Below, one piece after another: positions 21,799-41,858 of a DNA stretch of 41,858 nt. The first letter of the stretch is position 1. Each line of letters starts with the position of its first letter. The position numbers and the translations under genes are program-made. Below the pieces are notes generated by a model that worked only from the letters and a program-made list of their open reading frames with translations, was not told the DNA's origin and did no database searches. Origin of the DNA: a virus. The DNA lies in UHGV virus genome UHGV-0466892, one strand, 5' to 3'.

Positions 21799-22075
21799 CC
21801 GCAACAGCCACTTTGATATCTTCCTCGGTTCTCTGTGACTCCAGTGCGATCTGCTGCCTGGCATATTGATTTGTCTCCAGAATGATGTTCGTTATTGCTA
21901 CGGTGCGCAGGACATTCGCGGTGATGGTCTCAAAGGAATCAGCGCGCTGTTCTGCATCGTCAGCGCGCCGCTGTTCCTCCAGAAACTTTCCATGGTAATG
22001 ATTCGCTGACCAGACAAGACCACCAGCAATACAAGCAATAAACGTTAAAATGAGCGCCCAATAACTCATCTTCAT
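21683..22075 (-). CDS. i-spanin (Rz-like)
   Basis: 130 aa; N-terminal transmembrane helix then charged coiled-coil region; ATGA overlap with the endolysin stop. Confidence 0.7.
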   Translation of the reverse strand: MKMSYWALILTFIACIAGGLVWSANHYHGKFLEEQRRADDAEQRADSFETITANVLRTVAITNIILETNQYARQQIALESQRTEEDIKVAVADDDCAVRFVPSGAVKRLHDYANGLRSSSGGSVTSQPDG

Positions 22076-22686
22076 ACCAGCAGCGCCGCCCGCGCCTTGT
22101 TGTATCGGACCTTACGATCCTCAATACCGTTCAGACCGCCGTTAATGATGCGAGTAACACGATTAATATCGGCACCGTAGATCATGCAGCCTTTAGAGGT
22201 GTAGAACCATGCAGCTGAGCGCGCAGCCTGTAGTTCCTGTTCCAGTTGTTCAGGTGAAGTCACCAAATCTAACTTCAGAGCAGCCCCGCAGGTGCGATAA
22301 TTGTCGAGGCCAGTGATTTGAATTAACCCTCTGCCGCGATATTTCCAGCCGTCGCCGGGCGCTTTGTTACCCAGGCGGTTGCTATACACCAGATTGGCAA
22401 TAGCATCCTGACGAGCTGCATGTCCGGATGTTCTGCCAAGGGCATCAGCCTGCTGCTGTGTGATCCTCTTTCCGAACGTCGCCACCAGCGCAGATGGTGT
22501 GTAGTTCAAATTTTCAACTACAGCGCTAAAGCCACCAGACTCATGACCTACCTGAGCGATGAACATGGCCTGATCCGCGGGTGCTGTAATGCCGAATTCT
22601 TTCATCGCTGCATCTACTGGTTGAAACCAGCGCACAGCCAGTCCGGCGCTGATACCAGCCGCCTTTTGAAATAATTGTTGGTTCAT
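22072..22686 (-). CDS. endolysin, glycoside hydrolase family 19 (chitinase-like lysozyme)
   Basis: 204 aa; motif WKYRGRGLIQITGLDNYRTCG typical of GH19 phage endolysins; follows the holin genes. Confidence 0.85.
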   Translation of the reverse strand: MNQQLFQKAAGISAGLAVRWFQPVDAAMKEFGITAPADQAMFIAQVGHESGGFSAVVENLNYTPSALVATFGKRITQQQADALGRTSGHAARQDAIANLVYSNRLGNKAPGDGWKYRGRGLIQITGLDNYRTCGAALKLDLVTSPEQLEQELQAARSAAWFYTSKGCMIYGADINRVTRIINGGLNGIEDRKVRYNKARAALLV

Positions 22687-22967
22687 TAGTGCCTCAGATG
22701 ATCAACCAGGCGTGCAACGTTGCCTCTGACGGCCACCAGCACGGAAAGAAAAATAGTATTCGCCACGATAATGGGCCATGAGGAATGGGGATAAATCCCA
22801 CAGAGATAGGCCAACGGAACAGCACTGTATGTAACAGTAATCAGCCAGGCTAAACGTGAAACCCAAGGACGATGCCGCGAATCACCACGACGATAAAACA
22901 TCAGAGTAATAACAACACAAGCACATAACAGCGCGTTTATAGTTGCTGTCGGGTCATTTAGCTCCAC
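22686..22967 (-). CDS. holin/antiholin-like membrane protein
   Basis: 93 aa with 2-3 hydrophobic helices, between the first holin and the endolysin. Confidence 0.55.
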   Translation of the reverse strand: MELNDPTATINALLCACVVITLMFYRRGDSRHRPWVSRLAWLITVTYSAVPLAYLCGIYPHSSWPIIVANTIFLSVLVAVRGNVARLVDHLRH

Positions 22968-23340
22968 CTGAACCTCCCCGGCGCGTTATGAGCGCCACCA
23001 GCGACCCGATATCCTGATTATTCAGGAACGTCAGGATCTTAACGGCTAAAGCAGATACGATTACGGCACCAATGGCATCCAGAGGTTTATCACTGTATCC
23101 GGTCAAGCTTGCCAGCTTGGAGCCAACCAACCCAGAGCAAAGGATCCCGGCAATATACGACACGATAAAATATGCCAGTCGGCGCGATGCGCTCAGATCC
23201 GCTGCTGTTGCTATGTAGAATACAGTCCCTGCAAATGCGCCAAATACAACGCCGTAATCAGTTCCGGTCAGCAGTCCATAAACACTGGCACCCGTCAGGG
23301 CACCACCAGCCAGCCCAGTACCGGAAATTGGATCGGACAT
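22954..23340 (-). CDS. holin
   Basis: 128 aa, glycine-rich with multiple transmembrane segments; first gene of the lysis cassette. Confidence 0.6.
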   Translation of the reverse strand: MSDPISGTGLAGGALTGASVYGLLTGTDYGVVFGAFAGTVFYIATAADLSASRRLAYFIVSYIAGILCSGLVGSKLASLTGYSDKPLDAIGAVIVSALAVKILTFLNNQDIGSLVALITRRGGSGGAK

Positions 23341-23451
23341 TTAGCCCCCTCTTAATTGCTGTGAGTCCTCTCAGGTATGAGGGGAAATAGGCTCAGGCTT
23401 CACGGGTTGGATTTATCAACAAAGCACGTAGCGGATGATTACCGTGAGCCG

Positions 23452-23483
23452 GAAATAAAAAAGCCCCAGCGGGTGCCGGGGCG
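23452..23483 (-). terminator. rho-independent terminator (minus strand)
   Basis: GC stem around 23463-23482 followed on the minus strand by a T-run (complement of aaataaaaaa at 23452-23461). Confidence 0.5.
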
Positions 23484-23574
23484 AGTTATAGATAAGTGCA
23501 TGCTCTAGCAGCAAATCACTGTATTTGATATCGTTAAATCGCCAAAAATAACCCTATCAAACATGGAGAATTAT

Positions 23575-23724
23575 ATGAGTGAATCAAACAAACCATCTGG
23601 AGAAAATAAGCCTCAACCCGCACCACAGCCTAAACCGGCTCCACAGCCAGCCGAAAGAAATCTGAGGACAGGTTATACCTTTGTTGCCGATTCTGCTGAA
23701 AACATCAGAAAAAAAGGTAAGTAA
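23575..23724 (+). CDS. candidate small proline-rich protein (49 aa), uncertain
   Basis: ATG at 23575 with GGAG 7 nt upstream; MSESNKPSGENKPQPAPQPKPAPQPAERNLRTGYTFVADSAENIRKKGK; 3' end overlaps the convergent minus-strand gene by 20 nt. Confidence 0.25.
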   Translation: MSESNKPSGENKPQPAPQPKPAPQPAERNLRTGYTFVADSAENIRKKGK

Positions 23725-24274
23725 GTACTGAGATTACAAGTGCACAAACAGGGGTGAGGATTGTAGCGATCCTTACCCTTTCTAGTTCTCGGCCTATTCT
23801 GGCATTCTCTTTTTTACTCATTTCAGCCATTCTGGTTAAATCCGCAAGCCGGTAGCGCCGCAAGACGTTCAATGTTGAACGCTTTCCTGAAAATCCTTTC
23901 GACTCAAAACCAGTGTAATCATCTTCAGTAAACCCTTTATAGTCATCATGGTAAAGCGCATAGGGTGTCGATGACACGAGAGCTCGTGACCTTACAACGA
24001 GGACGCAGCGAACAAGATAAGCCGCACACATTGCCCAGTAGACTAAAAAAACAGACATTCCAGCGGTGAGGTAATCAAAACCTGTACGTTGCGTTAATAA
24101 CAAAAATGACGAGCCCACGCCAGCAATGAGTATACTCAATAACTTCTGGCCATTTTCTTTGTTTAGTGCGTTGGACTGGTGAATTTCGCGTATACAATCC
24201 TCGCCCTGCTTCTCCAGAAAAGCAACGAGTTCGTCGTCCGCATCCAAAAAGTAATCATCGGGTAGATTATTCAT
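23705..24274 (-). CDS. membrane protein of unknown function (cargo gene between Q and the lysis cassette)
   Basis: 189 aa; acidic N-terminal segment, two central transmembrane helices and a C-terminal hydrophobic anchor; ATG at 24274; flanked by terminator-like hairpins. Confidence 0.6.
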   Translation of the reverse strand: MNNLPDDYFLDADDELVAFLEKQGEDCIREIHQSNALNKENGQKLLSILIAGVGSSFLLLTQRTGFDYLTAGMSVFLVYWAMCAAYLVRCVLVVRSRALVSSTPYALYHDDYKGFTEDDYTGFESKGFSGKRSTLNVLRRYRLADLTRMAEMSKKENARIGRELERVRIATILTPVCALVISVLTYLFF

Positions 24275-24350
24275 TCCCCAACCTCACATCCTGTAATGCA
24301 TCAATTTTACCTGAATGTCTCGAACCTTGGTATTGCTGTCTCCAGAAACG

Positions 24351-24379
24351 CAAAAAACCCCACGGTGTTATCCGCAGGG
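24351..24379 (-). terminator. tR'-like terminator downstream of the late promoter
   Basis: On the minus-strand transcript CCCTGCGG-ataacac-CCGTGGGG forms an 8-bp stem (two G-U pairs) followed by TTTTTTG; the plus-strand version has mismatches. Confidence 0.5.
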
Positions 24380-24478
24380 CTTGAAACGAAGGCATTAACC
24401 CATCGTTGGGACAAAATTAACACAGATTCGGGAAAAGTAAATAGCCCAAGACAAAATCATAGGCTATCGCTATAGGCG
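24380..24478 (-). promoter_or_regulatory. probable late promoter / Q-utilisation region (pR'-like)
   Basis: About 100-bp AT-rich non-coding stretch immediately downstream of Q with weak -35/-10-like hexamers (TTTACT ... TAATTT), followed by the terminator. Confidence 0.35.
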
Positions 24479-25261
24479 TTACCGCGTTATCTGCTTAAGC
24501 TGTTTTTCGGCCCAGGACTCTTCGATATCAAATTTCGTGATCAGCAGGTCGTAGAATGGCTTAACAGACTTTTTCCAGGTGTCCAGGCTAATGGCGTCAG
24601 TAATCTGGCATACAGCAGCATAGGCTTCAGTCGACGGAAGTCGTTCATACCCACGCCCTCCGCAGCGCTTACAGTCAGCCAGAACAGGAACGCCCTGTTT
24701 CTCAGTAAGAGCCTGGTTCACTGCCTTGCCGCGCCCATGGCAATCACTGCAAGAAGCACTAACCACACCAGAGCCATTACACTTTTTGCATAGCACTTTG
24801 ATGGATTCTTTGACCTTCACCATCCCGGACACGGTCATTTTCCCTTCTGGCTTACGGAATTTATTGGTAAACACGTCAGCCTCAATGAAGCCCTGACCGT
24901 CACAACAATCGCACTGCTTCACGCTGGCAGCGCTGCGGGAATAGTCCTCAAAAGCGAAGGTGGCCAACTGGTGCATCACCTGAGGTTTAACCGCGGCACC
25001 GAGCTTACGCAGTGCGGCAACCTTGTCGCATTTTGTCATCGCGTACTCAGCCAGCAGACCGATCGCCCGATCCCGGTCGTTATTGCTTATGCCCATCTTG
25101 CCGAGGAAGGCGCTGTAACCCATTGCGGCGCGTTCCTGCGTCATGCCCATGGCAGCCATTATGTCGGTACCGGTCAGTGAATCGGAGGCGGTAGCGCGCG
25201 GAGAATCGCTAATCAGTGTGGATTTAGCGAAGTGGTATTTCACTGTGTTTTCAAGGTTCAT
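24479..25261 (-). CDS. Q: late-gene antitermination protein Q
   Basis: 260 aa; Cys-rich zinc-binding region (CDCCDGQG ... CKKCNGSG ... CSDCHGRG ... CKRCGGRG); located between RusA and the lysis genes as in lambdoid phages. Confidence 0.8.
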   Translation of the reverse strand: MNLENTVKYHFAKSTLISDSPRATASDSLTGTDIMAAMGMTQERAAMGYSAFLGKMGISNNDRDRAIGLLAEYAMTKCDKVAALRKLGAAVKPQVMHQLATFAFEDYSRSAASVKQCDCCDGQGFIEADVFTNKFRKPEGKMTVSGMVKVKESIKVLCKKCNGSGVVSASCSDCHGRGKAVNQALTEKQGVPVLADCKRCGGRGYERLPSTEAYAAVCQITDAISLDTWKKSVKPFYDLLITKFDIEESWAEKQLKQITR

Positions 25262-25394
25262 AGCGCTTCTCCAGCATAAGTTTTCACGTAATTCTTCAGT
25301 ATCCGGTAGTCCGTTAGCACAGAGCCGGGAAAGTGGTATAAGCGAAGCCGCTGCCAGCGAACGCGGAGGTGATCGGAAAAACAGGATTCAAATG

Positions 25395-25757
25395 TCATAC
25401 GGCCTCCAGCCCGGTGATTGTCAGTTCCAGCTTTCCACCTTTGGTAACGGGCATCTTCACAACGCGATAATCAACGACCTGAGCATCGTCCAGCCAGAAA
25501 CCTGCTTTGGTGAGTGCGTCAAAAGCGGCCTTTTGCAGATTATCCAGGTCACGGCGACGGCGATCCGGCATGTGGCACTCAATGCGGATTTTCACAGGCA
25601 TAGCCAGACCGATATCCAGCATTGCGTTTTTAATGATTCGGGCGACGTTATCGCGGTATGCCTGCCCTTCTGCGCTGATGTGCGTGCGCCCGCGATTATG
25701 GCGGTAGTAGCGGTTATTGCTCGGCGGCCAGGGCAATGTGATGTTGTAAGTATTCAC
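25395..25757 (-). CDS. rusA: Holliday junction resolvase RusA
   Basis: N-terminus (V)[22 protein letters not shown] matches the RusA family; GTG start overlaps the stop of the upstream gene (GTGA). Confidence 0.9.
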
Positions 25758-26044
25758 GCCTTGATTACCCCCTCTTTCAGCCAGATAACCTGCGTTCTCG
25801 CCATACCTTCCAGCGCGCATTCTTTAGCATACTCAGCATCGACAAAATGTGTACGGCGGTCGATCTCGTCGTGACAGGCAGAGCATGCAATGGTGGCAAT
25901 CAGATCAGGCGGTTTGATTCCGGTGCCACATAACCCGGCCAGGCGAATGTGCGCCAGTACAGACGTTTCCGGGTTACCGTTGCAGACGCCGGGAATTCGA
26001 ACCTGACAATCACGACCACGAGCCTCTTTGCGTAAATTTGCCAT
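25754..26044 (-). CDS. ybcO: YbcO-like protein (DUF1364, putative nuclease)
   Basis: [42 protein letters not shown]... closely resembles E. coli DLP12 YbcO as recalled; start trimmed to the internal Met; precedes rusA as in DLP12. Confidence 0.75.
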
Positions 26045-26046
26045 GC

Positions 26047-26256
26047 TCACCCCCACGCCTTGCTTTGCCATACCCGGCTCGGGCGAGGCGCGTTGTCGCC
26101 TTCCGGCAATTGCGCGCTGACGGTCCAGGTGATGTTGTCGCGATTCAGGCTGCGCTCTGTCTTTACACCGCGCGCCCGGTATTTCTCCACCAGCTCGTCG
26201 GCCTGTTCGGTGGTGCATTCGTGATGGTGGAACCAGGAAAATTTCATCGCCATCAC
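26047..26256 (-). CDS. small nin-region protein (hypothetical)
   Basis: 69-aa ORF, tightly coupled to both neighbours. Confidence 0.4.
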   Translation of the reverse strand: MMAMKFSWFHHHECTTEQADELVEKYRARGVKTERSLNRDNITWTVSAQLPEGDNAPRPSRVWQSKAWG

Positions 26257-26852
26257 CCCGCAAAGCTCATCAGCTGGGCGGCGGCGTTTTCTGCCTCTTC
26301 ACAACTGCGAAATGATCGGGAGAGTATCCATCGCCACAGAACATCGAGCGCGGCTTTGTACAGCTGCTGGAACTCGGTTTCGTCCATGTTAGCGAAGGCA
26401 ATACTGCGGGGATGTTTGCGAAGTGTTCCGTCAGGAAGCTGAATAGCGTCATAGTGACCAGACTCGACGATCACCCAGGCGCGATAAGCATCATAGGATT
26501 TGCAGATGCTGATGCTACCGGCGCGCTTATCGGCGATGCGGTCCAGATATTGCTCGGCAGCATCCAGCAGTGCGCCTTCGTTTCCACCAAATGCCGCGAG
26601 GAATTTAGCATAACCATTTACGAGCTTACGCTCATTGCTGGATATCGCCCCTCCAGTAGGTTCCCAGTATTCAAACCCGAGATTCAGGAGCGCAAAAAAA
26701 CGGCGATGGAATGCGGGATTCCTCACCTGGCGAAATTCGGCTACCAGCACGGCGCCGAGTTTGATTTTTGATTGCAGAATATCGCTGGTCTCCGGCGTCG
26801 CGGGGATCAGGATTCCTGATGACTGCTTGATGAGTTGTAGTTCGTGCGCCAT
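26253..26852 (-). CDS. nin-region protein (DUF1367-like)
   Basis: 199-aa ORF in the nin-like region. Confidence 0.5.
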   Translation of the reverse strand: MAHELQLIKQSSGILIPATPETSDILQSKIKLGAVLVAEFRQVRNPAFHRRFFALLNLGFEYWEPTGGAISSNERKLVNGYAKFLAAFGGNEGALLDAAEQYLDRIADKRAGSISICKSYDAYRAWVIVESGHYDAIQLPDGTLRKHPRSIAFANMDETEFQQLYKAALDVLWRWILSRSFRSCEEAENAAAQLMSFAG

Positions 26853-26886
26853 GGTTTCTCTCCGTGGCGCAGTAGGTTACGGTTGT

Positions 26887-27135
26887 TCAGACCGTTGATT
26901 TCATATTATCAGAAGGTGGGGTTACCCGGTAGCCGAGACGGTGAATAAACTGCATAAAACCATTAGGAGTAAAGACCTCTTCATCATCCAGCAAAGGCCG
27001 CATAGAAACCATGCCATTGACGCGATAAATTAGATGCCTGCCCGATGAAGGAAAGCTAAACACCACGCAGCCGTCAGACCTTCTTACAATGTCATACCAG
27101 TTGTCATCTGACGTTTGCAAAGCTGAATCACTCAC
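26887..27135 (-). CDS. hypothetical protein
   Basis: 82-aa ORF; no motif recognised. Confidence 0.35.
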   Translation of the reverse strand: MSDSALQTSDDNWYDIVRRSDGCVVFSFPSSGRHLIYRVNGMVSMRPLLDDEEVFTPNGFMQFIHRLGYRVTPPSDNMKSTV

Positions 27136-27288
27136 ATTTATGTTCTCCCTTCGAGCGACTAACAGACGCGATTAAAGATTGTCGGCAGCAGCATCAGAGG
27201 GTTACGCAAATTGCGGTATTCTGATAAATGCGCGCCAGCCTTAAGCGCAATTCTAATAAAACCAGTCGTCAGCGCTTTCCCAGGTTTC

Positions 27289-27486
27289 CTAGAGGATGGA
27301 TTCGATTTTCTTTTTATCGTCCTTGTCTCCACCGAAAACACTTAACCCATCGGACCCGGCACGGCGGATTGTGAGCCTGCAATTGTCATAGTGATCATTC
27401 AGGCGCTTAAGCAATTCTTTCTCCAGTGCTGGTACCGCGCCTTTAGGAAGTTCTTTCATGCGATCAATGGTTAATTCAACTTTCAT
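27289..27486 (-). CDS. dinI: DinI-like SOS-regulated protein
   Basis: MKVELTIDRMKELPKGAVPALEKELLKRLNDHY... resembles DinI; start set at the second ATG, which has a GGAGG Shine-Dalgarno; LexA box just upstream. Confidence 0.7.
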   Translation of the reverse strand: MKVELTIDRMKELPKGAVPALEKELLKRLNDHYDNCRLTIRRAGSDGLSVFGGDKDDKKKIESIL

Positions 27487-27504
27487 AATGGCCTCCATTG
27501 CATG

Positions 27505-27524
27505 TACTGTGTTTTTATACAGTA
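27505..27524. promoter_or_regulatory. LexA (SOS) box TACTGTGTTTTTATACAGTA
   Basis: Perfect CTGT-N8-ACAG palindrome with flanking TA, located just upstream of the dinI-like start. Confidence 0.7.
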
Positions 27525-27582
27525 TACCTATGCACGGAAATGATCAACGTTTTAAGAGCACAAATTGTTAATTTTCTGTCAG

Positions 27583-27614
27583 TAGTAAAAAAAGAAAACC
27601 CGCCGTAGCGGGTT
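27583..27614 (-). terminator. rho-independent terminator (minus strand)
   Basis: aacccgc cgta gcgggtt stem-loop followed on the minus strand by ttcttttttt. Confidence 0.6.
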
Positions 27615-27817
27615 GAATTAGCAATGTTTTATTAAGCCGCTATTTGTTTCTGCTGACAAAGCTCTGGCAAATTTGCACGCACCAGTGCTTCAGCAAACAT
27701 CGCTGGCTCCGCCGTGAAATCGCGGGATTCTGTTTTGTATCTGCTAATTATGAACCAGCAGAAACTTTACTAAGATATGAAAATTAGCCTGCTTAAACAG
27801 CCTTTATGAAAGGTTAG

Positions 27818-28285
27818 TTAATCTTCAAAAAGCTTAAAAGCCAAGTAAGCAACACTTGCGACTGCTGCGACAGGTGCCACCGCTGTGATTATTGCCCCGG
27901 CGGCCATTCCTCCTCCAACAACCGAACCAACGGCTGCCATTCCGGATGAGATCGACGCAGCCCCTGCCGTTCCTGCTGCGCCTGCTAAAGATGCAACACT
28001 GGCTCCAACTGTTCCAGCTGTTGCAGACATTATAGTAGCAGCTGACCCACCAGTAACGGCCGAAGCTGTAGTGGCTGCAACGCCAGCAGTTCCGATCAAT
28101 CCACCAGCACCGACAATTGTTGAAGATTTTATTTCTGAATTTGAATCAAGCACAGTTTTTCCAGGCGACCGAGAGTTCGAATCTTCTATAGTGTTCTCCC
28201 TAACGGCTTGTTCAAGGGCCTCGGCAAATACTCTCACTGCCTGCTGGGGTGATGAATGTTGCACAACTTCATTCTTAGTATCCAT
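27818..28285 (-). CDS. Gly/Ala-rich glycine-zipper membrane protein (cargo gene)
   Basis: 155 aa; polar ~60-aa N-terminus, then about 90 aa of G/A/S/T/V-rich hydrophobic sequence with repeated small-xxx-small spacing; own upstream AT-rich region and downstream terminator. Confidence 0.55.
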   Translation of the reverse strand: MDTKNEVVQHSSPQQAVRVFAEALEQAVRENTIEDSNSRSPGKTVLDSNSEIKSSTIVGAGGLIGTAGVAATTASAVTGGSAATIMSATAGTVGASVASLAGAAGTAGAASISSGMAAVGSVVGGGMAAGAIITAVAPVAAVASVAYLAFKLFED

Positions 28286-28413
28286 TATCGCTCTCCGGGT
28301 ATAATTTCATTGCTGTCCATTATCATAAACTAAGATTTACACTCTCAGTAATGTCCATCTCACAATGCATAATCAAATACACTCGAAACATTATTCATTG
28401 TTGCTACGGTGAG

Positions 28414-28893
28414 TCAGCTAAAATCAATACGCTCATGATTCATTCTGTCATGTACACATGGCTCACCGTCTTTCGGCTCAGGCCATTTGCGCTGTTTGTT
28501 AATCGCCAACTTCTCTACCATCGCTTGGGTAATCTGTTCATCACTGATACCGGCACGACGCTGCGTATCCCATAACAGGAATTGCATGTCAGCCCATTCG
28601 CTAAGGTCGCCAGGTTCAGCAGCAGCCTCGAGCGCTTCTTTAGAAAGGTGCTTCAGAGGACCAACTGGACCGACATCGCCGAAAGTAGCCTGTGACCATG
28701 TAGCATGCTCACGGCGTACTTGCTCACGGGCCATCGACTCCAGAACTCCATTGATCACCTTCACAGCATCAGCCATCGCATAGCCGACATTACCGCCGTC
28801 GCTTTGTGCTGCTGCTTTGCTGAGTATTTCACGTATCTGGTGCAGGCGATCGAGTGATACAGGACCGTGCGCCGGGTGGTTGTTAGTTGTCAT
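28414..28893 (-). CDS. DUF550-like protein (putative dATP/dGTP pyrophosphohydrolase domain)
   Basis: 159-aa ORF; family assignment from memory of prophage DUF550 proteins, not verified. Confidence 0.45.
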   Translation of the reverse strand: MTTNNHPAHGPVSLDRLHQIREILSKAAAQSDGGNVGYAMADAVKVINGVLESMAREQVRREHATWSQATFGDVGPVGPLKHLSKEALEAAAEPGDLSEWADMQFLLWDTQRRAGISDEQITQAMVEKLAINKQRKWPEPKDGEPCVHDRMNHERIDFS

Positions 28894-29261
28894 GCTGACG
28901 CTCCTTCTTGATATTTTTCGAACCAGAACACCACTGGGTCAGATTTCATTTCAACCAATCCCATACGAACCAGCGCTTTGCCTTTCCCGGACACAAGGAA
29001 TTCACGACGACCATCACCGATAATTCGCCGGTAATCTTCCAGGCTACTGCAATGCTTGTGCAGATTGCATGGGTGGCATGCTGGAACCATGTTTGATATA
29101 TCGTCACGTTCCTGGTGAAGCATATTTCCATCAAAACGAATGACCGGTTTTACATGGTCAGCATGCCCGCCTTTCTCTGGTAGTTCGCATCCACAATAAG
29201 CACAGCGACCGCCAAACTTCATGCGTAGCTCTGCGCGTTGCTTTTTGGTAATAGTTGTCAT
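28890..29261 (-). CDS. HNH endonuclease
   Basis: 123 aa; CAYCGC ... HADHVKP ... CHPCNLHKH is a classic HNH / zinc-finger nuclease motif. Confidence 0.85.
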   Translation of the reverse strand: MTTITKKQRAELRMKFGGRCAYCGCELPEKGGHADHVKPVIRFDGNMLHQERDDISNMVPACHPCNLHKHCSSLEDYRRIIGDGRREFLVSGKGKALVRMGLVEMKSDPVVFWFEKYQEGASA

Positions 29262-29997: not shown

Positions 29998-30909
29998 TTA
30001 CCCCCTGAATCCGGGTGGGATTGTTTTGTCTGGCTCAGAAATGCGGTTCACATCCCTGCCCGTTTTGCGAGCGTTGAGAGCGAACTTCGGTTTAAACAGT
30101 CCCTGGTACCCGTTGGCGATACTGGTGTTGATCACATCAACGGGGTCATGCCCAGCGTCCAGGCAAGCCTTGAGCAACTTGAATGCTTTGGTGACCGTCA
30201 TTTCGGTCTTGATGGCTTTGCCAGACTGTTGGCGGTAGGCCACCCACTCACTCCAGGACACAGAATCAAGCCACTCAGGAACGGGAATCGTCAGCGGGTC
30301 AAACTTACCCTTCCCCTTTGGGGGATTAGAGGGGGTTAGATCTGTATTTATATTTGTATTTGGAAGAATGTCTTTGGTGTTCCCTGTTTTCAGGGATACC
30401 TCTCCCTGTTTTTGGGGATGGTTATCCCCGTTTTCAGGGATGATTGAAGGGGTAAAATTGCTATCCCTGAATTCAGGGATGGTAATAACCCATGTGACAA
30501 CTTCAGCAGCAGGAAACACCGCTGGACACTTCATGCAATTTGGCTTGGTATACGCCCATTTATCCAGGCTGGTATTAATCCCTATGTATCTGGTTTGCCC
30601 AATGCGGCGCAGGATGATGATGTTCCGATAGGCAAGGCTCAACACGGCTTCAGAGACGTGTTTCACCTTCAGCGTCGTTTTATCTGCAATGAGGCTATTG
30701 GCGATGCGGTCAGAACTCTTAGACCAGCCATAGGTCAGACGAACGATAGCATTCAGCACCCGGAACTCGCGCCCGGATAGTTCGACGATACACAGGGCAT
30801 CCTGAATCTGGTTGGCCAGGCGCAAATAGCCTTTCTCCAGTTCAGCCATGCTGCTCTCCTGTTTCCCCTGCTGTGTGGGGAATTTGAATATTTCAGCGGT
30901 ATTTGACAT
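29998..30909 (-). CDS. replication initiation protein O-like
   Basis: Start set at MSNTAEIFKF (ATG 30909 with GGAG); N-terminal region resembles lambda O (...YGWSKSSDRI...); ori iterons lie inside the gene. Confidence 0.8.
   Translation of the reverse strand: MSNTAEIFKFPTQQGKQESSMAELEKGYLRLANQIQDALCIVELSGREFRVLNAIVRLTYGWSKSSDRIANSLIADKTTLKVKHVSEAVLSLAYRNIIILRRIGQTRYIGINTSLDKWAYTKPNCMKCPAVFPAAEVVTWVITIPEFRDSNFTPSIIPENGDNHPQKQGEVSLKTGNTKDILPNTNINTDLTPSNPPKGKGKFDPLTIPVPEWLDSVSWSEWVAYRQQSGKAIKTEMTVTKAFKLLKACLDAGHDPVDVINTSIANGYQGLFKPKFALNARKTGRDVNRISEPDKTIPPGFRG
30341..30479. repeat. phage replication origin: four palindromic iterons TCCCTG-N4-CAGGGA plus adjacent AT-rich tract
   Basis: Iterons at 30381-30396, 30403-30418, 30425-30440 and 30464-30479 (the first three at 22-bp spacing); AT-rich tctgtatttatatttgtattt at 30341-30361; layout matches the lambda ori inside O. 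Confidence 0.75.
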
Positions 30910-30993
30910 ACTGTTCTCCGCAATTACGCACAGTTTTTGCACCTGAAAGCCGTTGGTGTTCGAGCACCGCGGCTTTCGCCATTTCTGAGCCCG

Positions 30994-31562: not shown

Positions 31563-31781
31563 CTACTTTGGTAATCCGTCAGTGGGATTTGGATAGAGAT
31601 CAGGGCGCAGCTCGTGGGGGGTTACGCCTGTCATTTTGAAAATCGGGAAGATATAGCTTGGCGGGACGATCCCTTGGTCACGATTCTTCCAATGACTTAC
31701 AGACATACTCGTCACACCAAGCGCGATGCTGAGCTTTCTGGCAGAGCCAGCGGCTTTAATTGCTTTATCGAGTGCGGACAT
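31563..31781 (-). CDS. cro: Cro-like HTH regulator (YdaS family)
   Basis: 72 aa; KLSIALGVTSMSVSHWKNRDQGIVP ... ELRPDLYP matches the YdaS/Cro-like HTH pattern; AGGAG Shine-Dalgarno; divergent from the repressor. Confidence 0.7.
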   Translation of the reverse strand: MSALDKAIKAAGSARKLSIALGVTSMSVSHWKNRDQGIVPPSYIFPIFKMTGVTPHELRPDLYPNPTDGLPK

Positions 31782-31810
31782 GTGCTTCTCCTGCTTATTG
31801 ATAGCAGAAG

Positions 31811-31875
31811 TAAACCACAGATTTATACTTCATGCAAACTTTGGATTTATTGCGTGCATAAACCAAATATTTACA
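31811..31875. promoter_or_regulatory. OR-like operator cluster with divergent promoters
   Basis: Three related 15-17-bp sites: TAAACCACAGATTTATA (31811-31827), AAACTTTGGATTTATT (31836-31851), TAAACCAAATATTTACA (31859-31875), about 24 bp apart, between the cro and cI starts. Confidence 0.6.
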
Positions 31876-31883
31876 ATGACCAT

Positions 31884-32273
31884 ATGAGAAAAGAAGAACC
31901 CAACCTCGTTCTGGTGGAGCGCCTTACTGAGATCACTGATCGCGGCGTTACCAAAGCAGACATGGCAAGAATAGCTGGAGTCACCCCTCAGGCCGTAAAC
32001 GGCTGGTTCAAAAAAGGCGTGATTAGTAAGAAATCGGCACTGGCCATAGCCGACGCTGTTGGTATTTCTGTCGCCTGGCTACTCGGTGAAGACGTTGGGG
32101 AGAAAGACGGTCTCAAACCGGACGAACAGCGTTTGCTCGAGCTCTACCGCCAGTTACCGGAAGAAGAGCAGCAGAACATGCTCCGCATTTTTGCGCTTCG
32201 CCTGAAAGAGTTAGATGAGCTGTACGAGAAGTACATGAAGGGTCGGATTCGATCGCAAGGTGAGCAAACCTAA
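31884..32273 (+). CDS. cI: CI-like repressor (XRE-family HTH)
   Basis: Start set at ATG 31884 (MRKEEPNLVLVERL...); HTH segment GVTKADMARIAGVTPQAVNGWFKKG; divergent from cro across the operators. Confidence 0.7.
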   Translation: MRKEEPNLVLVERLTEITDRGVTKADMARIAGVTPQAVNGWFKKGVISKKSALAIADAVGISVAWLLGEDVGEKDGLKPDEQRLLELYRQLPEEEQQNMLRIFALRLKELDELYEKYMKGRIRSQGEQT

Positions 32274-38401: not shown

Positions 38402-38599
38402 ATGGATGATATTTTGGTAACGTCAGACCTGACCAGTCGCTACAAAATTTCACGCAAAACCCTTTGGTCATGGCAAAGTGCAGACACAATGCCTCGGGGC
38501 TTCGTATGCCCGTTCCCACCCCCTGACTGGCCCGGCAACCCTAACCGCTGGCGCTCTGAGTCAATCAAAGAGTGGGAGGATAAAAAGAAGATAAATTAA
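38402..38599 (+). CDS. xis: excisionase / AlpA-family DNA-binding protein
   Basis: Start set at ATG 38402 ([25 protein letters not shown]...FPPPDW...WRSESIKEW) matching the AlpA/Xis HTH pattern; 3' end abuts the integrase 3' end. Confidence 0.6.
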
Positions 38600-39789
38600 C
38601 TGAAGGGCTCTCCGATGATCTCTTCAAGATGGCTCTGCCAAACGCGGAGCCAGTGTTTCTGATCATCGATATAGTCATGAAGGTTGTAATGCGCCATAAC
38701 CCCCACCATCTGATGCCCGAGCAGCTTTTCAATTACGTGCGGCGGGCAACCTAACTCAGAGAGATTTGTGGCTATCGTCCGCCTCATATCATGAAGCGAC
38801 CACTCTGCCATACCTGTTCCATTCCAAATAGAACGGGCGTAATTGGATGCCACAGGTGAATGAACGGGCGAATCTTTGATCCCGCCATCAATTTTACGTT
38901 GTGAAGTCACCAGGTGATTGGTGTTTATTTTCTTGAGGTGATTTCTGACCAAGTTAACGGCGGCGTCTGAGAGCCCCCTTCTAATATGTACCCGAGTTTT
39001 ATAACTGCCCGCAGGCACGACCCACTCATTATCATCCAATCGAAACCATGATCTCTCACTAAGTCGAATCTCAGCCGTACGGCATCCGGTAAGCATAATA
39101 AATTTCACCAGGAAAACGGACTCTATCGACATATGGCTTTTCAACCACTGATAGATTTTGCGCAGATCGTCATCGTCCATCCTGCGAGTTCTCTTTTTAG
39201 GCTTTTGCCCGACATCAGATGGCAGTAATCCCTCGAGTGGGTTTGAGGCGATCACACTTCTGTTAACGCAGAACCTAAACGCCCGTTTGCACAGCGAAAG
39301 CATGTAATGAGCCATCACCCTGCTTTCTATAGAATCGAAGACGTTGATCCAGTGCATTTTCGCTGTGTTATCGACTTTGACATTCTTCATCGGTTCGGCG
39401 ATATGTTTCTCAAACACCTGGCGATAGTAATCGACTTTAACTAGCCCGTTAGCGATACAGTGCCTTTCAATCCAGTAATTGAACGCTTCGGCAACGGACA
39501 TCGCTTCCTGTCGGGTCTGCTTATCCAGCTTCACCTGCTCTCGCGGATCCAGTCCCTCAGTTAACCAGTTTCTGAATTGTTGGCGACGCTCTCTTGCCTG
39601 GGTGATACTCATTGCAGGATAATCACCAACATTGAGTTTTACCGCTTTACCGGCCCAGCGATACCGATAGAAAAATGATATTTTTCCGGCCTGGCTGATT
39701 CTGGCGTTGAGCCCGTGCGAATCAGAAATAATCTCGATATCATCTCTTTTCTTGCCGAGCGCCTTCCTGAGCTTTGTGTCGGTGATCAT
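38596..39789 (-). CDS. int: tyrosine site-specific integrase (P4-like family)
   Basis: Start set at the Met of [14 protein letters not shown]...[10 protein letters not shown] (typical N-terminus); C-terminal HDMRRT ... LGH ... AHY region carries the catalytic R/H/Y motifs; the track start at 39846 is a GTG through upstream repeats. Confidence 0.85.
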
Positions 39790-39794
39790 TGAAT

Positions 39795-39835
39795 GGGTAC
39801 ACATTTTTGTTTTTGGGTACACAAAAGTGTACACA
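39795..39835. repeat. three direct repeats G(G/T)GTACACA upstream of int (candidate regulator or arm-type sites)
   Basis: gggtacaca at 39795-39803 and 39815-39823, gtgtacaca at 39827-39835. Confidence 0.45.
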
Positions 39836-40060
39836 AAGTTGCCCACTCAAAGCTACACGCAATGTAACACTAGTTCGCAGAGTGTTATGGTTTACATCCT
39901 TGAAAGCCTGCTGGATAAGGGTTTAGCGTAACAGAACGTTTTTACGCGGAATTGTTCGTAATATGCCAAATGACAATTTAAGAAAGTGTTCTAATTTATT
40001 AGAAATTTGCACTTAAATCAAAAAGTTACGGACAATTCAACCACCAGTCAATAAATTAAA

Positions 40061-40092
40061 GGGCACATTAAAGTACACAATATTTGTGCCCT
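40061..40092 (-). terminator. terminator-like hairpin downstream of the invertase gene
   Basis: gggcaca ... tgtgccc 7-bp stem with an 18-nt loop, flanked by A/T-rich sequence on both sides. Confidence 0.4.
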
Positions 40093-40112
40093 TCTCTGTT
40101 TCTTTCCCGTTA

Positions 40113-40661
40113 TCAGCTAGCTGGAAACTTTTTATACAGAGTTGAGAGCCCTACTCCATACGTTTTTGATACGCTTTGTCGTGATTCACCGGTTGCCATC
40201 CGCTCCCCCATTTCCCGCCATTGCTCATCCGTGAACTTAGGCCTGCGACCACCAACTCGCCCTTTTGCCCTGGCTACGGCCAGCCCTGCTAAGGTACGTT
40301 CGCTATTAAGATCAGATTCATATTGTGCTGCGGAAAGGATGTTACGAAAGTTATAGCGGCCGCTGGCTGTTTTGAGATCCACGCCATCGGTAATACTGCG
40401 GAAGTTGATACCCTTTTCCTGTAACTGCTGGAACATCAACAGCGCATGCAGAACGTTGCGGCCTATCCTGTCCAGCTTCCAGACCACCAGTTCATCCCCC
40501 GGCTGCATAGTGGCGATCAGCCGTTTTAGAACCGGCCGATTCGATTTCCTCCCGCTGGCATGCTCTTCAAAAATTTTCTCACAACCCGCTGACTTGAGCG
40601 CCGTTAGTTGCAATTCAGTGTCCTGGTGGTTTGTTGATACTCGGGCATAACCGTAAATCAT
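40113..40661 (-). CDS. serine recombinase, DNA invertase of the Hin/Gin/Cin/Pin family
   Basis: Start set at MIYGYARVSTNHQDTELQ (catalytic Ser-containing N-terminus); C-terminal HTH; GGAGA Shine-Dalgarno; lies adjacent to an invertible fiber segment. Confidence 0.9.
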   Translation of the reverse strand: MIYGYARVSTNHQDTELQLTALKSAGCEKIFEEHASGRKSNRPVLKRLIATMQPGDELVVWKLDRIGRNVLHALLMFQQLQEKGINFRSITDGVDLKTASGRYNFRNILSAAQYESDLNSERTLAGLAVARAKGRVGGRRPKFTDEQWREMGERMATGESRQSVSKTYGVGLSTLYKKFPAS

Positions 40662-40665
40662 GGGA

Positions 40666-40692
40666 TTTCTCCTGTTATGAAAACAGGAGAAA
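40666..40692. repeat. perfect 11-bp inverted repeat tttctcctgtt / aacaggagaaa spanning the invertase ribosome-binding site
   Basis: Arms at 40666-40676 and 40682-40692 with a 5-nt spacer; the left arm supplies the invertase Shine-Dalgarno on the minus strand. Confidence 0.5.
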
Positions 40693-40713
40693 CGGCGAAG
40701 CATCACCAGATTT

Positions 40714-41205
40714 TTGATGGTTATAAAAAAGGTTGGTTTGGGAGAAGGCTCAGCGTTACCCGTTGGTGTACCTGTTCCGTGGCCTTCAGCCACTCCTCCA
40801 ACAGGCTGGCTGAAATGCAATGGTGCGCCTTTTTCTGCCGCACAATATCCGAAGTTGGCACTGGCTTATCCTAGTCTGGCATTGCCGAATTTACGCGGTG
40901 AGTTCATCCGTGGCTGGGATGACGGGCGCGGTATTGACGCGGGGCGCGAAATTCTGTCTGCTCAGGGTGACGCCATTCGAAATATCGTTGGACACATCTC
41001 ATGCGTGCGTCGTGGGAGTGGATTTTCAGACCTTAAAGATGGCGCGTTTAGATACGATAGCAACTGGTCTACAAAAATTAAAGGGGATGGGGTCGAAGAC
41101 GACTGGGGGAGCGTAGTCTCATTTGATGCCAGTCGCGTAGTTCCAACTGCACCAGAAAACCGTCCACGCAGTATCGCATTTAACTTCATCGTGAGGGCCG
41201 CATAA
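40714..41205 (+). CDS. alternative tail fiber C-terminal (receptor-binding) cassette, start-less; expressed only after inversion
   Basis: Frame open from 40681 with no proper ATG or Shine-Dalgarno; KKVGLGEGSALPVGVPVPWPSATPPTGWLKCNGAPFSAAQYP...LRGEFIRGWDDGRGID is a typical variable fiber C-terminus. Confidence 0.7.
   Translation: MMVIKKVGLGEGSALPVGVPVPWPSATPPTGWLKCNGAPFSAAQYPKLALAYPSLALPNLRGEFIRGWDDGRGIDAGREILSAQGDAIRNIVGHISCVRRGSGFSDLKDGAFRYDSNWSTKIKGDGVEDDWGSVVSFDASRVVPTAPENRPRSIAFNFIVRAA
40721..40746. other. gix/hix-like inversion crossover site (partner of 709-734)
   Basis: TTATAAAAAAGG TT GGTTTGGGAGAA; the right half and TT core match the reverse complement of the site inside the fiber gene (TTCTCACATACC TT GGTTTGGGAACG). 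Confidence 0.6.
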
Positions 41206-41807
41206 TGACACAGGCAAAATTAAACAGTGAATTTATTGCCACAGTAGCGGGTGATATTACCGTCTATAACTATGACAACACGACACGGGAATACATTTCA
41301 TCATCAACAGAATATCTTGCCGTTGGCGTCGGTATCCCGGCATGTTCTTGTTTAGATGCGCCAGTTACACATAAAGCTGGTTATGCAATCTGCCGTTCTG
41401 CAGATTTTAACTCATGGGAATATGTGCCAGACCATCGCGGTGAAATCATCTATAGCACCGAAACAGGAGAATCGAAAGAAATCACAGCTCTGGGTGATTA
41501 CCCTGAAAATACAACCACTATCGCCCCGTTAACGCCATATGATAAATGGGATGGTGAGAAATGGGTGACGGATACTGAGGCACAGCATAGCGCCGCAGTA
41601 GAAGCGGCAGAAGCACAGCGCCAGTCACTGATTGATGCAGCAATGGCTTCCATTAGTCTGATTCAGCTGAAATTACAGGCCGGACGTAAACTTACGCAGG
41701 CAGAAACAACCAGGCTTAACGCTGTGCTGGATTACATTGACGCGGTGACGGCAACAGATACCAGCACCGCGCCGGATGTCATCTGGCCTGAACTGCCGGA
41801 GGTGTAG
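41205..41807 (+). CDS. tail fiber assembly protein (alternative Tfa)
   Basis: 200 aa; C-terminus ...TDTSTAPDVIWPELPEV is a typical Tfa ending; ATGA-coupled to the fiber cassette. Confidence 0.85.
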   Translation: MTQAKLNSEFIATVAGDITVYNYDNTTREYISSSTEYLAVGVGIPACSCLDAPVTHKAGYAICRSADFNSWEYVPDHRGEIIYSTETGESKEITALGDYPENTTTIAPLTPYDKWDGEKWVTDTEAQHSAAVEAAEAQRQSLIDAAMASISLIQLKLQAGRKLTQAETTRLNAVLDYIDAVTATDTSTAPDVIWPELPEV

Positions 41808-41858
41808 GCCATTCAATATCTGGCGCACCGGAAGTATCGACCAGTTCCAGTGTGTCCA
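41779..41858 (-). CDS. 3' end of the Tfa gene that begins at 361 (continuation across the window junction)
   Basis: Reading the minus strand from position 1 into 41858 keeps the frame: ...NLWLDY-LDTLELVDTSGAPDIEWPTPPAVQAR-stop at 41781-41779, a typical Tfa C-terminus. Confidence 0.6.
   Translation of the reverse strand, partial: DTLELVDTSGAPDIEWPTPPAVQAR

Follow-up and report, generated by a model that had tools for sequence, protein, structure and literature searches.

A Gly/Ala-rich gene of a Rac/lambda-like prophage belongs to a conserved, unnamed family of mobile-element cargo and shares a putative membrane hairpin module with bacterial LRAT proteins

The UHGV virus genome UHGV-0466892, a stretch of 41,858 nt (the window), is a Rac/lambda-like prophage, and its minus strand carries at 27818-28285 an open reading frame (ORF) for a Gly/Ala-rich protein. 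Homology searches showed that this gene is a real member of a conserved, unnamed family whose members are single-gene cargo on mobile elements. On the basis of these comparisons, the protein probably acts at the cell membrane in phage-host conflict. The more specific mechanism that we propose, in which it would be an oligomerising membrane hairpin protein acting at the membrane in phage or mobile-element conflict, is given about even chances. The gene and its protein were divided into the following segments.

27818-28285, minus strand: coding sequence of the 155-aa Gly/Ala-rich protein, stop codon included (ORF list, sequence, family conservation and identical copies in four IMG/VR prophage contigs)
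28130-28285, minus strand: polar N-terminal extension, residues 1-52 (alignment; AlphaFold pLDDT 77-80 for residues 11-30; amphipathic helix predicted at ~13-35)
27974-28129, minus strand: first half of the conserved core, residues 53-104 (K-SST...GGSAATIMSATAGT.GA), specific to the close subfamily, with predicted helices 55-76 and 82-103
27821-27973, minus strand: C-terminal module, residues 105-155 (AAS-ISSGMAAVGSVVGGGMAAGAIITAVAPVAAVASVAY..FKLFED), a widely shared putative two-helix membrane hairpin (invariant residues, profile matches and hydropathy)

A sequence search recovered 23 homologues, all of them unannotated, with a core of ~108 aa and 55-70% identity. The family core reads MSxxxK-ST...GGSAATIMSATAGTTGAALA...AAISSGMAAxGSVVGGGMAAGAIITAAAPVA...YGLFKLFED-stop, with a common start (MSxxxK) and a common end (YGLFKLFED-stop), and in the alignment the positions G91, G124, G126, M127, A128, G130, P138 and Y147 were invariant. 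The family is spread over Gamma- and Betaproteobacteria and Campylobacterota; its hosts include Lacimicrobium, Oleiphilus, Xenorhabdus, Escherichia albertii, Acinetobacter and Vibrio, together with Herbaspirillum, Massilia, Sulfurovum, Arcobacter and one Desulfobacterales metagenome-assembled genome. The extension of residues 1-52 is missing from all homologues found and is carried by the window protein alone. Nearly all close homologues begin 5-8 residues before K53 and have no N-terminal domain, indicating that the core must act on its own. The homologues were found in the following settings.

L002: element with serine recombinase, Mob and Rep genes, inserted in comM
L004: beside a truncated comM
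L008: AlpA/YfjJ island, with an Hcp-VgrG-PAAR cluster beginning ~2.4 kb downstream
L010: 25-kb Rep3/ParA plasmid
L012: RelE/HepT (toxin-antitoxin) island
L017: ResIII helicase and Bro-N setting
L018: MobA relaxase contig
L020 (Xenorhabdus mauleonii): VRR-NUC/TsiV/PAAR island (type VI secretion system, T6SS, toxin)
L024: type I restriction-modification and integrase island
L066: IMG/VR phage contig with a 64%-identical homologue

No conserved partner gene was found by all-against-all BLASTP of the neighbours in ~20 loci, and no recurrent partner emerged when 133 neighbouring ORFs from 19 loci were surveyed with Pfam. In two unrelated loci (L002, 8450-9097, and L004, 7038-7922) the homologue adjoins a truncated comM (ChlI/Mg-chelatase), a known insertion hot spot, and therefore lies at the edge of elements integrated in that gene. 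In X. mauleonii (L020, 2887-6336) the homologue directly follows VRR-NUC toxin, TsiV immunity and PAAR genes, and a second VRR-NUC/TsiV pair lies downstream; this is the only locus with a natural T6SS-cargo reading.

Proximity to T6SS genes bears on the view that the protein is an antibacterial pore-forming toxin, such as a Gly-rich microcin, a CdzC-like bacteriocin or a Tse4/Ssp6-like T6SS effector that depolarises competitors. Gly/Ala-rich composition recalls pore-forming peptides, the Xenorhabdus homologue stands right behind toxin, immunity and PAAR genes, and L008 has its Hcp-VgrG-PAAR cluster close by. However, T6SS adjacency is seen in these two loci only, neither an export gene nor an immunity gene is conserved alongside in ~20 loci, and the window gene lies in a prophage early operon that has no secretion system. 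Moreover, the protein sequence contains no signal peptide or double-glycine leader. A toxin of this kind was thus judged quite unlikely.

The wider reach of the C-terminal module was revealed by profile searches. A search against 1.84 billion representatives returned 526 matches at E ≤ 0.001, including 142 at E ≤ 1e-10; outside the close family the match was limited to the C-terminal ~75 profile positions, usually at the C-terminus of longer proteins and often present twice. The module comprises the C-terminal ~50-75 residues (SSGMAAVGSVVGGGMAAG...AAP...YG). When the proteins of at least 160 aa among the 150 best profile matches were scanned, 36 of the 64 carried LRAT (PF04970), three an XRE-type helix-turn-helix (HTH) domain, two GYF_2, one ADP_ribosyl_GH and one TPS. 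A second profile search yielded 925 proteins at E ≤ 1e-5, mostly of ~280 aa and described as "lecithin retinol acyltransferase family", and the LRAT-module proteins came from Nostoc, Calothrix, Luteibacter, Vibrio vulnificus and others. As a control for composition, a hidden Markov model (HMM) of the C-terminal half was compared with the equally Gly/Ala-rich N-terminal half and gave E ≥ 0.2, indicating that the long-range matches reflect homology rather than composition. Half-versus-half HMM comparison (E ≥ 0.2) also led us to reject the idea that the core is a tandem duplication of the module. No description of the family was found in the literature on prophage glycine zippers or on LRAT with glycine zipper or TerB.

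Bacterial LRAT proteins (PF04970, ~280 aa, two C-terminal modules) share the module SGLAAxGxxVGGGMAAG...AAP...YG with E-values down to 1e-27. In contrast to them, the window protein has no catalytic domain and combines one shared module with a subfamily-specific N-terminal half-core; the LRAT proteins examined, from cyanobacteria, Luteibacter and Vibrio, are chromosomal. In the LRAT fusions an Arg/Lys-rich linker or tail follows each module, and the enzyme domain is not preceded by a signal peptide. If the positive-inside rule applies, the two ends of every module would stay in the cytoplasm and the chain would turn back tightly at the invariant GGG to form a hairpin; the tail position behind cytoplasmic-type domains appears to be that of a membrane anchor. 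The eukaryotic PLAAT/HRASLS tail-anchored enzymes are functional analogues of the bacterial LRAT-module proteins. A profile search of PDB sequences gave only a resemblance between the Gly-rich helix of the module (AAisSGlAavGsvVGGGmAaG) and helix 1 of ATP synthase subunit c (GxGxGxG), which was not significant (E = 0.1). Both proteins have a Gly-rich helix followed by a more hydrophobic helix, forming a hairpin, but the module has no carboxylate ion-binding residue, so subunit c serves as an analogy for ring-type packing and not as a homologue.

Another link of the module leads to the Bunzi system. The PADLOC model of BnzA (PDLC03833) matched five of the 23 family members, all distant and stand-alone, at model positions ~286-375 (E = 6e-8 for P0021), and over the same positions it matched an LRAT fusion (P0043) and an ADP-ribosylglycohydrolase fusion (P0143). 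BnzA of Bunzi (Millman et al. 2022) is a TerB protein with predicted transmembrane helices (bioRxiv 10.1101/2022.05.11.491447), and like the present family it is found on mobile or defence islands. Unlike BnzA, the window protein has 155 aa against a model of ~544 positions and contains no TerB domain; its neighbours are a pyrophosphohydrolase gene and dinI, with no BnzB-like gene beside it. Separately, one Vibrio vulnificus locus (L070, 5476-8252) has in a row an integrase gene, a Cpn10-like gene, a gene for LRAT plus two modules and a gene with a weak TerB match (PF05099), and this row may represent a membrane system of LRAT and TerB proteins, as yet uncharacterised, some parts of which are related to Bunzi.

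The sharing of one module by free-standing and fused proteins leads to a further reading, in which the stand-alone protein would be an anti-defence decoy: the free hairpin, produced early in infection or by plasmids and integrative elements on their entry, would co-assemble with Bunzi BnzA-type or LRAT-module proteins and poison them. Such a decoy would explain the lack of a partner gene, the many kinds of mobile element, the early-region place and the strong conservation for helix packing; we regard it as a long shot. As a second novel reading, the protein may itself be the effector of a minimal system, in which a single gene of a new family provides defence or exclusion at the membrane.

The properties of the protein itself were compared with what an earlier note, written from the letters and ORF list of this DNA, had claimed. 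Residues 1-52 are polar, residues 53-155 contain 30 A, 18 G, 12 S, 12 V and 10 T out of 103, and no charged residue lies between K53 and K151, in agreement with the polar N-terminus and the G/A/S/T/V-rich stretch that the note had described. Its hydrophobic core was borne out in one part only: in Kyte-Doolittle averages over 19 residues, residues ~124-145 form the only stretch above the transmembrane threshold of 1.6, whereas residues 58-120 reach only 1.0-1.3. The repeated small-xxx-small motifs are no more frequent than composition gives (35 against 33.3 ± 2.5 expected from 5000 composition-preserving shuffles); in 5000 shuffles likewise, 2.9 GxxxG pairs were expected and 3 found, and the (G/A/S)xxxGxxxG zipper motif occurred once against 2.2 ± 1.6. 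Therefore, the term "glycine zipper" describes composition only. Across the family alignment, the only GxxxG pairs kept are G120/G124 and G126/G130.

Resemblance to the named glycine-zipper families of Pfam (Gly-zipper_Omp PF13488, Gly-zipper_YMGG PF13441, Gly-zipper_OmpA PF13436 and Rick_17kDa_Anti PF05433) is confined to a small-residue-rich, hydrophobic sequence with a few GxxxG pairs. A Pfam-A hmmscan at E ≤ 1 returned no family, neither these four nor LRAT PF04970; zipper periodicity did not rise above composition, and lipobox and signal peptide are missing, so that membership in such a family had to be given up. An NCBIfam scan of the protein returned nothing, and the sole PHROGs match, a tail-fibre family at E = 0.1, was taken as compositional. 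AlphaFold was run twice, with 23 and with 58 sequences, and predicted an all-helical protein with helices at 13-35, 55-76, 82-103 and 107-153, the C-terminal helix being the most confident part. Homology search and structure prediction, which the earlier note had named as a check, thus gave a conserved family and an all-helical model of low confidence. With this prediction and a module in the position of a tail anchor, the earlier observation is largely right and its reading as a stand-alone membrane protein is reasonable; the pore formation to which it likened the sequence goes beyond these data.

The proposed mechanism can be laid out along this model. A cytoplasmic N-terminal amphipathic helix, present in this prophage lineage only, would be followed by four small-residue helices, of which the last two (~107-153, bent at the invariant GGG) would form a hairpin inserted in the inner membrane. 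Gly, Ala and Ser positions are tightly conserved, which suggests that the protein may self-assemble through close helix packing. In LRAT/NlpC-P60, HTH and ADP-ribosylglycohydrolase-type proteins, the same hairpin tail would act as a membrane anchor. The stand-alone protein might then perturb or gate the membrane, with superinfection exclusion or abortive infection as the outcome, or it might disturb the working of some membrane-bound system that also uses this module.

Several results weigh against this proposal. The hydropathy of residues 54-120 does not reach the classical transmembrane threshold, and simple Hessa sums stay above zero along the whole protein. Confidence in the AlphaFold models was low (mean pLDDT 58 and 63, pTM ~0.3), their tertiary arrangement is not trustworthy, and Foldseek of the model against the PDB gave zero matches. 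The window protein itself had no PADLOC match at E ≤ 0.1, BnzA included, and model positions 286-375 are what we take to be the transmembrane helices of BnzA, an assumption of our own. No match came from tblastn searches of 50,697 phage records and of 72,556 plasmids; these negatives are weak because the low-complexity filter probably masks the core. Finally, promoter-like sites matching at 9/12 positions were found twice upstream of the gene against 1.9 expected from shuffles. The promoter evidence is thus at chance level; any expression in the lysogen would be conjectural, and the gene may be read through from the early operon.

The N-terminal extension suggests a different use of the same architecture, namely that the conserved core mainly anchors the protein while the helix at residues 13-35 draws a host or phage protein from the cytoplasm to the membrane, either to recruit or to sequester it. 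Hundreds of proteins consist of a cytoplasmic-type domain followed by the module, and the N-terminal helix was second in confidence only to the C-terminal one (pLDDT 77-80). In addition, the ATG that starts the ORF is preceded at 7 nt by a GGAG ribosome-binding site (28296-28293), and the strength of this site makes translation of the extension probable. Starting instead at the GTG of codon 45 (28153-28151) would give an N-terminus like that of the homologues, and the upstream ATG has the better ribosome-binding site. However, nearly all close homologues do with the core alone, and residues 1-52 had no homologue in the Pfam scan, the phage tblastn or the sequence search. A tether of this kind therefore seems unlikely, and the membrane hairpin protein that may self-assemble remains the preferred reading.

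The place of the gene in the prophage was then determined. Besides RecE-like, RecT and YdaT-like genes, the window contains the following landmarks.

38596-39846: integrase
31614-32273: cI-like repressor
29998-30942: O-type replication gene
28414-28893, minus strand: dATP/dGTP pyrophosphohydrolase (PF04447)
27289-27498, minus strand: dinI
24479-25261: Q
~21.6-23.4 kb: lysis genes (matching annotated holin, endolysin and Rz)

On the minus strand the order is HNH endonuclease, pyrophosphohydrolase, the Gly/Ala-rich gene, a methyltransferase remnant, a terminator, dinI, DUF1367, YbcO, RusA and Q, which places the gene in a nin-like delayed-early region. The HNH endonuclease and pyrophosphohydrolase genes lie within 28414-29261. 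This position, together with the lack of a conserved partner in ~20 homologous loci, upholds the earlier description of a stand-alone gene in the early region. It also bears on the idea that the protein times lysis in the manner of a holin or antiholin, by making the membrane permeable when the lytic cycle ends. The product is indeed a small, hydrophobic, helical phage protein, and the L066 homologue comes after two small ORFs past tail-like genes, one of them endolysin-like by eye and neither with a Pfam match. However, the lysis cassette of the window is found at another place (~21.6-23.4 kb); from a gene upstream of Q, the protein would be made long before lysis; and most homologues sit on plasmids or islands that have no lysis genes. 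A role in lysis was considered very unlikely.

Comparison with related phages showed, from shared sequence, that the gene fills a swappable cargo (moron) slot in which these phages hold other cargo, the term moron being used in the sense of PMC3594210. Phage mEp237 and a prophage of E. coli KMi029 match the window DNA rightwards up to ~27694-27707 and then have different small genes. In mEp237 the slot holds an annotated promoter and a 78-aa hypothetical gene, and the 3' end of the methyltransferase gene is present twice, the window remnant matching both the end of gp46 and the second copy. In the KMi029 prophage, a 55-aa cargo gene lies between two terminator copies. The boundary repeats are at 27631-27698 in the window, at 1888-1954 and from 2479 onward in mEp237 (L069) and at 3933-3958 in L001; it appears that the cargo of the slot is swapped by recombination at these short boundary sequences. 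As is typical of a moron, a stem-loop with z = -3.1 lies downstream of the gene, here inherited from the slot.

The DNA of the gene had no match in 5,426 complete E. coli genomes by megablast or blastn, where the slot boundary alone was matched, and the exact protein sequence was absent from a collection of 15 billion proteins. An identical protein was found in four IMG/VR prophage contigs, one of which (L063) has only 21821-28894 in common with the window. In L063 the homology to the window starts exactly at the start of the pyrophosphohydrolase gene (28894); therefore, it and the Gly/Ala-rich gene are carried as a pair in no fewer than two mosaic backgrounds.

Prophage exclusion morons such as HK97 gp15 and P22 SieA (PMC3594210, PMC10883804), which encode small proteins of the inner membrane, offer a likeness in kind: each is a single small hydrophobic gene in a variable lambdoid slot, and the window gene is likewise flanked by AT-rich DNA and a terminator. 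In contrast, no sequence similarity to them was found, and the present family also occurs on plasmids and islands in several phyla.

The flanks of the gene and the ORF opposite to it were resolved as follows.

28286-28413, minus strand: upstream intergenic region, AT-rich (35.9% GC against 52.4% for the window), containing the Shine-Dalgarno GGAG at 28296-28293 and weak sigma-70-like hexamers
27699-27817, minus strand: unique 3' flank that arrived with the gene, with no match in E. coli genomes
27631-27698, minus strand: 3'-terminal remnant of a DNA methyltransferase gene (a partial DNA methyltransferase in the annotation of E. coli prophages), which marks the right-hand boundary for recombination in the cargo slot
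27587-27614, minus strand: intrinsic terminator, AACCCGC-TACG-GCGGGTT plus a T-run, which closes the slot upstream of dinI and is kept in mEp237 and 51 E. coli genomes
27885-28304, plus strand: antisense ORF of 139 aa, Pro/Ala/Thr-rich, a by-product and not a gene, with boundaries that vary among homologues

The AT-rich upstream region claimed earlier is evident from these values. Its sigma-70-like hexamers are CTGAGA (28348-28343) and GATAAT (28324-28319), separated by an 18-nt spacer. A downstream terminator, also claimed, does exist: the stem-loop at 27614-27597 has a 7-bp stem and a folding energy of -13.9 kcal/mol. However, it lies 204 nt from the stop codon, and from its presence in mEp237 and in E. 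coli prophages carrying other cargo it is assigned to the slot and not to the gene; a terminator 3' of the gene is inconsistent across 17 homologous loci. Independent expression, which had been read from these two flanks, is plausible in that the mEp237 slot has an annotated promoter, but the promoter sites here do not exceed chance and the terminator is inherited from the slot. An Rfam scan of 27300-28600 returned nothing, and thus no known antisense or regulatory RNA lies there. On the plus strand at 27712-27725, within the gene's 3' flank, a hairpin with a T-rich tail (CCGTGAAATCGCGG and the tail behind it) resembles a terminator, probably as a chance match.

The antisense frame is open as the earlier note had stated; its explanation was right in spirit, but the cause is not the codon bias to which it attributed the open frame. 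A stop can arise in the antisense frame only where the sense strand has a Tyr, His or Gln codon. Y147 is the one such residue in the core, and an equally long antisense open run remained in 66% of random synonymous recodings; the frame is therefore open because of the amino-acid sequence. As the sense and antisense frames have common third positions, codon-position analysis cannot separate them.

These data also bear on whether the sense ORF is a gene at all. Recombination could have brought in an ORF that is decaying or is not translated, or the antisense ORF could be the real product. The ORF adjoins a methyltransferase pseudogene remnant in a recombination-scrambled slot, its promoter evidence does not exceed chance, and the antisense frame is open in homologues too. 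However, the reading frame is uninterrupted, has a GGAG site and encodes the same protein, at 100% identity, in four mosaic prophages. Across phyla the sense frame is kept over its full length from start to stop, and hundreds of proteins have it joined in frame to known domains; as for the antisense frame, the protein sequence by itself predicts that it should be open. We consider these explanations very improbable.

Two further features of the window were recorded. Its only CTGT-N8-ACAG site (TACTGTATAAAAACACAGTA on the minus strand) lies at 27507-27522, just upstream of dinI, and looks like a LexA/SOS box, so that dinI seemingly has its own SOS-controlled promoter right after the slot terminator. 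Beyond the integrase, 39900-41858 has ~95% identity to E. coli tail-fibre assembly genes, an invertase-type recombinase and yciI, which suggests an adjacent prophage remnant or a host junction and an Escherichia-like host.

If the hairpin reading holds, the family would represent a compact and widely mobile membrane module that has no Pfam, NCBIfam or PHROG model. If true, it would newly link orphan phage and plasmid genes with bacterial LRAT/NlpC-P60 enzymes and with part of BnzA. Should the protein prove to be only anchor-like and hydrophobic, with no phenotype, it would be an ordinary orphan moron. As a single gene of 108-155 aa, it is easy to test whether the module serves as an anchor, a channel or an oligomerisation device, and such work could show if mobile elements use free copies of the module for exclusion or counter-defence.

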